From contig NC_043004.1 in assembly GCF_006345805.1 (NCBI RefSeq), positions 71,858,001 to 71,922,000 of the forward strand: a DNA stretch of 64,000 nt. Reading direction: 5' to 3'. The stretch's first letter is position 1, and each line of letters opens with the position of its first letter. Position numbers and translations under genes: made by a program. The notes beneath the pieces are model-generated. The model made no database searches. It saw nothing but the letters and a program-made list of their open reading frames with translations, and was not told the DNA's origin. Origin of the DNA: Octopus sinensis. Its lineage: Eukaryota. Below, in pieces: positions 705 through 2,487 of the stretch.

Positions 705-2487
705 ATTTTATTACTACCCACAAGGGGCGAACATAGATGGGACAATGCAATCGGGGAACTTAAAATAAGAAAGCGAATGACATGAAAAGGAAAAAATAAA
801 AGTAAAAATGACATATGAAAGAATATTTACAATGAGATGTAAATGTCCACTCGATCCCCGGAATCGAGAGGTTACATTTTCGTCACATATATTTCACAAA
901 ATTTTCTTTTTTCTCTTTTTTCTTTTTTTTTTCTTCTCACAATTCTACACATATTCTATAATAGTTTTCACTTCTCTAAAGTCCATCACTGAGCCCTCAG
1001 GCGGCCGCTCTCTCACTCGAACCTTCGTGTAAAATATTACACTCTCTCCGGCAGCTCTGAGGAACTCACCGGCTCTTTCTTCGGGGATTAGAGCAGTCTC
1101 CTGCCACTGATCGGTCATCCTGTTGACCCATATATGTCCCTCCGTATTACATGTCAAGTCTTTCATTTCAGGGCAGAAATGGAAGGTTACTAACTTGTAG
1201 TAGTAGTAATCTTGTTTCCGTCCTACGTTTTCCTTCATTTTCCTTTTCGGGCTTATTTCTTCCTTGTTCTCCTCTCTTTGTTTCTCTCTTTCTCTCTTTT
1301 TGCCTTCTTTTCTTTCTCCTTCCTTCTCTTGTCTTTTTGTTTCTTTGTCTGTTCTCTCTTTCTCTCGTGTTTTATGTTCCTTTTCTTTTTCCTTTTGTGT
1401 GTCGTCTTTTCTTTTCCTTTGATTCTGATCTCTCTCTTGTTTTTTTTCCTGTTGTTTCTTTTTCCTTTTTTCTTTCCTGACTCTGTTTTGGTTCTATTTC
1501 TTTCTTTTCTTTTATTTCTTTTTCCTTCATTGACTTATTATTTCCTTTCTCTTGTTGTTTTGTTTCCTTTTCTATGTTTTCTTTCTCATTTACAGTATTC
1601 TTCTTTTCTTCAAGTTCTTGCTCGCACTCCGCTACGAATTCGTATAACGGGCACTCTTTTTTAATGTGCCCCCTTGTCCCACACAAGTAACAGTTTGGTT
1701 TTCTCCCCTCTACAATTACACTGAGGGTTTTTTCCTCTTCAATTTCAATTCTGTAGGGGAACCTTTCAATATCCTCTTTTGTGGCCATCAACCACAGTTC
1801 TACCCCATATCCTCTCCAGTTTACCGCGTTGGACTCCTTAATAGATTCCACCTCCACTTCCTCTTCTGCTGCTCCTAGAATAGCTGTTGCCAGCCATTCT
1901 GTTTTCACTTCTAGGGGTATATTCGGGATTTTAACCCGGACCCCTCTTCTTCCCTTGTATGAGGGCCACATTGTGAATTTTTCGGCTCTTAGTACGGTGG
2001 TAGCCAGTGAGGCCGCAATTTCTTCCGTTGCACATCTCACCTCCACCGTACCAATTTTCTTGCCTCTACTCACGTAGGTTATTTTCCCCATTATGTCTCC
2101 CAGACATTTTTCAATTTCGACTATCTCCACTCTTGCCAGTTTCTTCGTATTTTTGTCTTGGGTTCTGTATGTCACTGTCTTGCTTTCTTTATCCTCTTTT
2201 GCTTTCGCGGGGGGGATTAGCTTCACGCTATCACCCTCCCTTTTGAAGAGCTTTTCATATTCTTTGAGTTTATCCTTCTCAAAGAAAACCTCCTTTATGA
2301 TTATCGACGAATCGTTATTTTTCCCGGTGACCCCCGCGTAAGTCGCCATGACTAGAGGGTCAATTCACCTTCTTCGGAAGGTTTCCACACGTGGAGGCAA
2401 ACGCCTCGCGCGATATCAAATCAATTTACACAGAAAAAATTTCACCGTCTAGTCACAGATAACAACACACGTAGCTTTCCTCCATGT
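705..2487 (-). mobile_element. ORF1-only non-LTR-type element, copy B (complete unit of the tandem array)
   Basis: Starts at motif ACATGGAGGAAAGCTA (2487-2472); 5' UTR; ORF1; T-rich 3' UTR; LINE/SINE-like tail GCCCCTTGTGGGTAGTAATAAAAT at about 728-705; no ORF2. Confidence 0.75.
945..2349 (-). CDS. ORF1/Gag-like protein copy B: RRM-like region, CX2CX4HX4C knuckle, K/E linker and ~95-aa C-terminal domain; one frameshift
   Basis: ORF 1372-2349 contains VIVEGRKPNCYLCGTRGHIKKEC. The frame of ORF 945-1238 extends upstream through the K/E-rich linker. The span is 1405 nt, so removing one base (homopolymer region about 1440-1470) would give a 467-aa protein. Confidence 0.8.

Follow-up and report, generated by a model that had tools for sequence, protein, structure and literature searches.

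A protein-coding element and a group of SINEs lie in the same window of 64,000 nucleotides from Octopus sinensis (NC_043004.1, positions 71,858,001 to 71,922,000 of the forward strand; positions below count from the first letter of the window), and both end in nearly the same letters. This raises the question of whether the tail is the element's own and, if so, which copying enzyme the element and the SINEs might have in common. Genome-wide statements made in the following are based on database proteins and the contigs from four public runs (X1, X2, X3, and X9).

The ORF1-only elements and the tail of element B

Five copies of one ORF1 family, designated A to E, were found in the window, and three of them (A, B, and C) form its one head-to-tail array with a repeated junction motif. 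The copies and the parts of B are as follows:

1..688, minus strand: element C, 5' part, third ORF1 of the array, ending at the window edge
689..703, minus strand: junction motif after B (B/C junction), a target-site-duplication-like copy of the motif before B, by repeat score
705..745, minus strand: 3' tail of B, in common with SINE tail type 1 (alignment and shuffles; family-wide from public contigs)
705..944, minus strand: U-rich 3' UTR of B (240 nt), with no room for an ORF2
945..2349, minus strand: ORF1 of B with N-terminal region, CCHC knuckle, K/E-rich linker, and C-terminal domain; frameshift near 1430-1480
2472..2487, minus strand: junction motif before B (A/B junction), by repeat score
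2488..4167, minus strand: element A, divergent ORF1 (approximately 28% to B) with one in-frame stop and a 3' UTR of approximately 130 nt; 5' end approximate
32520..33835, plus strand: ORF1 of element D, frameshifted, 33-47% to B in pieces; ends approximate
47090..47871, minus strand: element E, a 3'-truncated ORF1 copy with a SINE head on its 5' side (32/36 nt)

Elements A, B, and D encode ORF1 only. The distance from stop codon to tail end is approximately 130 nt in A, 240 nt in B, and approximately 185 nt in D, and no ORF2 remnant was seen in these 3' UTRs. The B protein lies above the Pfam cut-off for zf-CCHC and matches no other Pfam family, ZCCHC3-like RNA-binding clusters of the Atlas appeared at 0.90, and the structure model of a homologue (P0045, 26% to B, with a pLDDT of more than 85 across most of the core) resembles tandem RRMs. 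The combination of RRM and CCHC characterizes a type I ORF1, found with Tx1 among others in the part of the literature at hand (PMC5203782), and the ORF1 of the B family is predicted to be an RNA-binding protein of this type. The type II ORF1p of mammalian L1 (Transposase_22) was not found, with zf-CCHC as the only Pfam match of B and two RRMs in the homologue.

The ten closest database proteins to the B ORF (53-99% identity) all stem from Octopus vulgaris, more distant ORF1 homologues occur in O. bimaculoides, O. sinensis, and Argonauta, and the N-terminal 240 residues of B are matched by 411 proteins. The close homologues are spread over O. vulgaris contigs with seven distinct lengths, and five of the ten end at the same C-terminal residues. 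With homologues on different contigs and loose contig ends at position 703, the B family is multi-copy with a shared 3' end. Among the homologues, 153 proteins were scanned and none contained an EN or RT family, and the protein searches returned no gene models extended by an ORF2 fused to ORF1, which is weak evidence. The ORF1 tree (28 rows, after removal of short hits and of five rows that had multiple knuckles or were a duplicate) did not resolve A to E as one clade, and the lineages are deep. ORF1 pieces also stand beside LDL-receptor and WD40 domains in the octopus gene models P0070, P0116, and P0130, as exonised insertions or annotation errors.

Further features were observed around the copies. 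Upstream of A lies an AT-rich stretch (4170-4660, minus strand), which we take to resemble the 5' end of a non-autonomous Helitron, and the array may sit inside it. The 5' side of D is rearranged (32141-32305; 34017-34189). It holds 42 bp of D's own ORF in inverted form, an inverted piece of D's 3' flank, and a direct repeat of 86 bp from the same flank. The flank is a repeat that also occurs at 12237-12406, 12628-12738, and 25029-25168; our guess is that it is a Penelope-like end. Penelope-like RT/GIY-YIG remnants were noted at 54786-55700 (weak GIY-YIG, E 0.001, below cut-off) and, by eye, at 13093-14157, 17613-18245, and 63519-63998. Element E begins right after a 36-nt match to the SINE head (47835-47871, minus strand), as if inserted into a SINE head.

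The initial annotation had located the end of B at 705..750 and likened it to the end of the SINE unit. The end is indeed present on the minus strand, where it covers 41 nt and stops at 745 rather than 750; its terminus reads AATAAAAT and has no poly(A) run. The likeness to the SINE was borne out, as each of the six type-1 SINE tails present here matches the B tail with 79-83% identity over 37-42 nt. The best local score was 48, which none of 1000 dinucleotide shuffles reached (mean 17.6, maximum 28).

The tail belongs to element B. B in its entirety is flanked by a direct repeat of 15/16 nt (2472-2487 and 689-703), with a score of 26 that was reached by 0.5% of 2938 random pairs, and no direct repeat was found around the tail at 705-745 alone, where the score of 12 equaled the null mean. 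No flanking duplication was found around A or D. Summed contig depth, which is not a copy number, did not drop across 745-760, where the SINE likeness stops, in any of the four runs; in X2, the values were 159,923 (740-754), 74,581 (755-769), and 32,183, then approximately 20,000 in the UTR (785-844) and approximately 400 in the 5' region of C. Two X1 contigs cross the tail into the UTR (696-768 and 708-768) and show 1 and 4 differences, respectively, to the window sequence. At 696, one X1 contig continues into B's own 5' sequence, so that B follows a tail elsewhere too. Overall, the 3' end of B continues into mixed flanks, B's own 5' end, or that of C in the public contigs, and the loose ends at 703 open into mixed flanks in three of the four runs. 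None of the 24 loose ends listed (of 136) departs from the UTR at approximately 750, and several diverged contigs of low depth have their start at 748-752 and are partly unaligned there. At position 738, the B copy of the window deviates from most aligned contigs, and the SINE-like base accounts for 148,941 of 206,514 depth in X2. The extra base of the SINE type at 728 makes up a small fraction of aligned depth (17,909 of 308,948, X2).

Tail variants and the 4-bp hairpin

Nine SINE tails are present in the window, six of type 1 and three of type 2, the latter always unit-terminal. The arrays that carry them, the hairpin of B, and the tail of D are located as follows:

716..728, minus strand: hairpin GCCC-CTTGT-GGGT of B, 4-bp stem and 5-nt loop (loop alignment, covariation)
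19655..20285, minus strand: SINE array of three type-1-tailed units plus a stub
33979..34019, plus strand: 3' tail of D, type-1-like in its 5' part, with the hairpin AGGC-CATTGT-GCCT at 33994-34007 (shuffles, loop alignment)
41189..41589, minus strand: SINE dimer, a type-1 unit followed by a type-2 unit, with a 15/16-nt flanking repeat
41673..42492, plus strand: SINE trimer (types 1, 1, 2) and a type-2 monomer, flanked on both sides and separated by a 17-19-nt repeat

Flanking repeats of 15-19 nt are thus found on both B and the SINEs, and the repeat of B (15/16 nt) resembles a target-site duplication. In the SINE multimers (19655-20285, 41189-42260), later units start approximately 46 nt into the head, right after a type-1 tail. 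The arrangement of the multimers suggests SINE-into-SINE insertion at one site. We take the SINE head to be tRNA-type with a likeness to Nin, and neither Rfam nor ARAGORN gave a tRNA hit for it. An OR1/OR2 (CORE) or Nin/Deu-domain SINE consensus was not contained in the supplement files searched for PMC4758252 and PMC4824008. The sole Rfam match of the window is a full-length 5S rRNA (11937-12055, minus strand, 77.2 bits), which is a gene, a pseudogene, or the head of a 5S-SINE.

It had been proposed that the end of D resembles the second SINE tail type, such that B and D would be partners of types 1 and 2, respectively. The quoted sequences are present (33994-34007 in D; from 42464 in the SINE), but D scored 27 against the type-1 tails, which none of 1000 shuffles reached, and 22 against the type-2 tails, which was reached by 14 of 1000. 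The two-pair account is therefore half right: since the match to type 1 is at least as good as that to type 2, D has a third, mosaic variant, and its longer loop may require another enzyme. The tail of A breaks off in the middle of the hairpin, after the 5' arm, at the A/B junction; its comparison with the SINE was not significant (725/1000 shuffles), and the comparison of A with D, which have the CCCC-AT motif in common upstream, gave 34/1000. The fold of A (z −4.2) is not evidence for the tail hairpin, as it uses the junction motif outside the element. An 11-mer in the 3' UTR of A (2472-2530, minus strand) is complementary at 10/11 to the junction motif directly after A. Complementarity between RNA and target is only a lead, since no match was found in B or D.

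When the stems were aligned by their loops, B and four type-1 SINEs had GCCC/GGGY, one type-1 SINE GTCC/GGGT, and one type-1 SINE a broken pair. Of the type-2 SINEs, one had GGGC/GCCT and the other two GGGC/TCCT with the loop-closing pair broken, and the stem of D is AGGC/GCCT around a 6-nt loop. Two adjacent pairs flip jointly between the types (C-G to G-C), the outer pair varies among G-U, G-C, and A-U, and TTGT is constant. In a MAFFT alignment, 40 of 44 stem cells pair, seven cells are changed on both sides, and the covariation score of 0.409 exceeded all six slid controls (best 0.322) as well as 500 shuffles. The earlier statement that the stem varies while pairing and loop persist is upheld by this covariation and has to be qualified for the three of nine SINE copies that break a pair. 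A SINE copy at 42.07 kb holds a U-G intermediate at pair 2, and a 1730-nt public contig, which was outside the derivation of the stem, displays a third compensated pair there (U-A, by eye). The rows of the alignment are related and the structure was read from the same sequences, so the covariation within the window amounts to approximately one event, to which the 1730-nt contig adds an independent one. A local inversion behind the stem flip was rejected, as the loop orientation is unchanged.

The predicted folds are weak. The hairpin is not the minimum-energy fold of the last 58 nt of B (z −0.34), its pair probability rises from approximately 0.06 in these 58 nt to approximately 0.5 in 28 nt, and all 11 tails with the hairpin fold no better than their own shuffles (z −1.16 to +1.44). 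In sum, a stem-loop with compensatory changes and a constant loop is present, with few independent events and a weak fold, and the evidence supports a tail that the ORF1-only elements and the SINE have in common, with covariation in the stem. We favor the reading that the weak stem would be stabilized by a bound protein.

The tail was also met outside the ORF1 copies and SINEs of the window. Two non-SINE sequences join it at 746-756 (X1, X3), including eight X3 contigs at 750, and both share the upstream CCCC-AT motif with A, B, and D, whereas the SINE is devoid of the motif (by eye). With 30 letters seen of them, these two families may be the 3' UTR of a LINE or further ORF1-only families. 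A motif from one of the tail-joining contig families was absent from the 64-kb window, and the 1730-nt contig (X1) has a variant tail with yet another upstream sequence.

A proposed common copying enzyme and the rival readings

The common tail likely reflects that both parties borrow the copying enzyme of a Tx1-type retrotransposon. Specifically, B would be a multi-copy ORF1-only element, and we consider it probable that B and the SINE are copied in trans by an ORF2p of the Tx1/L1 clade that recognizes the tail hairpin. This ORF2p would read the conserved CUUGU loop on a short stem that is free to drift in sequence, and it would prime at the A-rich end without a poly(A). Insertion would generate duplications of 15-19 nt, and re-insertion at the same target could build the A-B-C array and the tandem SINEs. 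The tail would be ancestral to the LINE/ORF1-only lineage, from which the SINE would have taken its last approximately 40 nt, probably on two occasions (types 1 and 2). A single LINE family and several related ones, each with its own tail variant, are equally likely. For zebrafish L2 elements, the available part of the respective study states that the loop sets the specificity and that stems are exchangeable (PMC4176376).

An RT-encoding LINE with the tail of B and the SINE was seen neither in the 64-kb window nor among the contigs listed from the public runs. The window does contain a candidate relative of the autonomous partner:

34870..37300, minus strand: remnant T, a decayed ORF1 of the same family followed by ORF2-like pieces, with zf-RVT at the end

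In pairwise comparison with the homologue P0014, the knuckle and the C-terminal domain of T matched at equal spacing (E 6e-5 and 1e-4), matches that are weak and were chosen by eye. The C-terminal-domain piece was the top window hit of a profile made exclusively from database proteins (E 0.038), and profile-to-profile comparison did not confirm the ORF1 pieces (probability 2.1% and 0.1%). The ORF2-like pieces, which we take to be Tx1-type from their motif likeness to Tx1 ORF2, all miss the Pfam cut-offs, including the zf-RVT-like piece (E 0.019), and have no EN family hit. Their Atlas neighbors at 0.75-0.76 include a zf-RVT cluster, which is only a lead, and a comparison with PDB sequences gave no meaningful match. 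No RT core was seen in T, and its 3' end is lost. The ORF1 family may thus be tied, weakly, to an L1/Tx1-like ORF2 through T. Among the sequence collections, the B-type tail pattern had no match in metagenome contigs, the SINE core pattern had none in GTDB or IMG/VR, and the ORF1 queries led to no confirmed locus in IMG/VR or metagenomes. As T showed neither RT core nor 3' end and the collections added no locus, the partner LINE is a third party that we infer.

Alternatively, a founder ORF1-only element could have captured the 3' end of a SINE in a single event (a template switch or an old truncated insertion) before it amplified. A capture agrees with the sharp beginning of the B-SINE similarity at 745, where among the loose ends listed 23 (X2), 19 (X3), and 13 (X9) contigs leave into the SINE body, and with the comparison of the last 95 nt of B and D, which was not significant (229/1000 shuffles). 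However, D represents a distant ORF1 lineage and has a related tail at the same position, the upstream CCCC-AT of A, D, and the two contig families is missing in the SINE, and the tail alone has no flanking duplication, so that we deem a capture unlikely.

The tail might further be shared by descent as a 3'-end signal (an AATAAA/AGTAAA hexamer with its neighbors) or as a primary-sequence element, with the stem being incidental. AATAAA directly follows the hairpin in both B and D, folding predictions for B and for most SINE copies favor structures other than the hairpin, and the three SINE copies with a broken pair point in the same direction. The joint flip of adjacent pairs, the varying outer pair, and the U-A of the contig, all around a constant TTGT, nevertheless argue against an incidental stem and make this reading quite unlikely.

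It is very improbable that A, B, and D are dead, internally deleted autonomous LINEs that were spread by segmental duplication or as an A-B-C block. Every ORF1 copy in the window does have a stop or a frameshift, and in the gene models P0007 and P0010 an A-like ORF is joined at its end, by splicing, to a B-like one, from which it follows that the A-then-B order recurs at other loci. Against this stand the varied sequences met by the 3' end of B, 3' UTRs of 130-240 nt in which no ORF2 remnant was seen, and the close homologues that end at the same residues in five of ten cases. Finally, an independent insertion of a truncated SINE at this locus only (705-745), the case that the initial annotation had named against itself, is largely refuted and hardly credible: although no contig among the 32 of 1033 pieces listed bridges 745 with 31 letters on each side, the tail lies inside the repeat of B with no duplication of its own, depth does not dip at the junction, variant contigs continue into the tail from the 3' UTR of B, and the SINE-type base at 728 is a minor one.

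A doubtful extension of the preferred reading, trans-copying by way of the tail hairpin, would be a community of split LINEs. Ancient ORF1-only lineages (30-47% alike), selected apart from ORF2, would share one hairpin address devoid of poly(A) with the dominant SINE, and one loop-reading Tx1-type ORF2p would serve all of them. The SINE would have drawn its two tails from this pool, and a motif directly upstream of the hairpin would pair with the landing site in some lineages (10/11 nt in A). If this were true, the ORF1-only elements would be helpers that give ORF1p to a SINE without ORF1, and not only parasites.

Comparison with known systems

For a better comparison, known systems are considered as far as the available parts of the cited articles describe them. 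Non-autonomous LINEs with ORF1 only are known in three clades, namely HAL1 (L1), HeT-A (Jockey), and Ag-Sponge (CR1) (PMC5786205, PMC5753468), and the telomeric HeT-A forms head-to-tail arrays (PMC13534243). Like these, the octopus elements encode ORF1p only, keep the 3' end, and would need an autonomous partner. They differ by their type I ORF1 (type II in mammals), the missing poly(A) run, the structured tail in common with a SINE, and several lineages that are only 30-47% alike within 64 kb. A LINE serving both a SINE and an ORF1-only element has a precedent in L1 with its Alu and HAL1 (PMC5753468).

Tails shared between a SINE and a LINE of the L1 clade are described for maize (ZmSINE2/3 and LINE1-1_ZM) and Chlamydomonas (SINEX-3_CR and L1-1_CR), and just three SINEs with such tails are counted in these sources (PMC3472496, PMC3747384). 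The tail comprises approximately 45-50 nt there and, as in octopus, a hairpin with a compensated variable stem and a conserved loop. The octopus system differs in being from an animal and in its third, protein-coding passenger, and its LINE side is a putative one. Crocodilian Tx1-Mar and SINEU, as well as Tx1 in Tx1D, exemplify tandem insertion inside a mobile element with a target duplication between copies (PMC4494074). SINEU-3 thereby resembles the octopus array and the tandem SINEs, in which insertion would likewise have been repeated with a duplication between copies (PMC4494074). However, Tx1-Mar and SINEU are linked by shared targets and SINEU has a poly(A) end, whereas the link in octopus is the shared tail with an ORF1-only passenger. 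The stringent tails of zebrafish ZfL2-1/ZfL2-2 and eel UnaL2 provide the model for a conserved loop on an exchangeable stem (PMC4176376). These elements belong to the L2 clade, have longer stems, and were tested in cells, whereas the octopus tails are known from their sequence.

In O. vulgaris, SINEs make up 11.6% of the genome, and recent activity is ascribed to 13 L1-Tx1 families; repeats are given there as class totals only, in the available part of the article (PMC13282606). A partner LINE of octopus SINEs is not named in the portions of the literature covered (including PMC4758252, PMC4824008, PMC3531059, and PMC6740152), and the present combination was not found for octopus in full-text searches of the literature, a coverage that ends before Repbase and Dfam entries. 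The shared tail points toward the enzyme behind the SINE expansion in octopus. With a 13-nt hairpin and its natural compensated variants, ancestral stringent recognition in the clade becomes testable. This comparison highlights that each ingredient is known singly, and that the octopus system differs by its type I ORF1, the lack of a poly(A), the shared hairpin tail, and several deep lineages.
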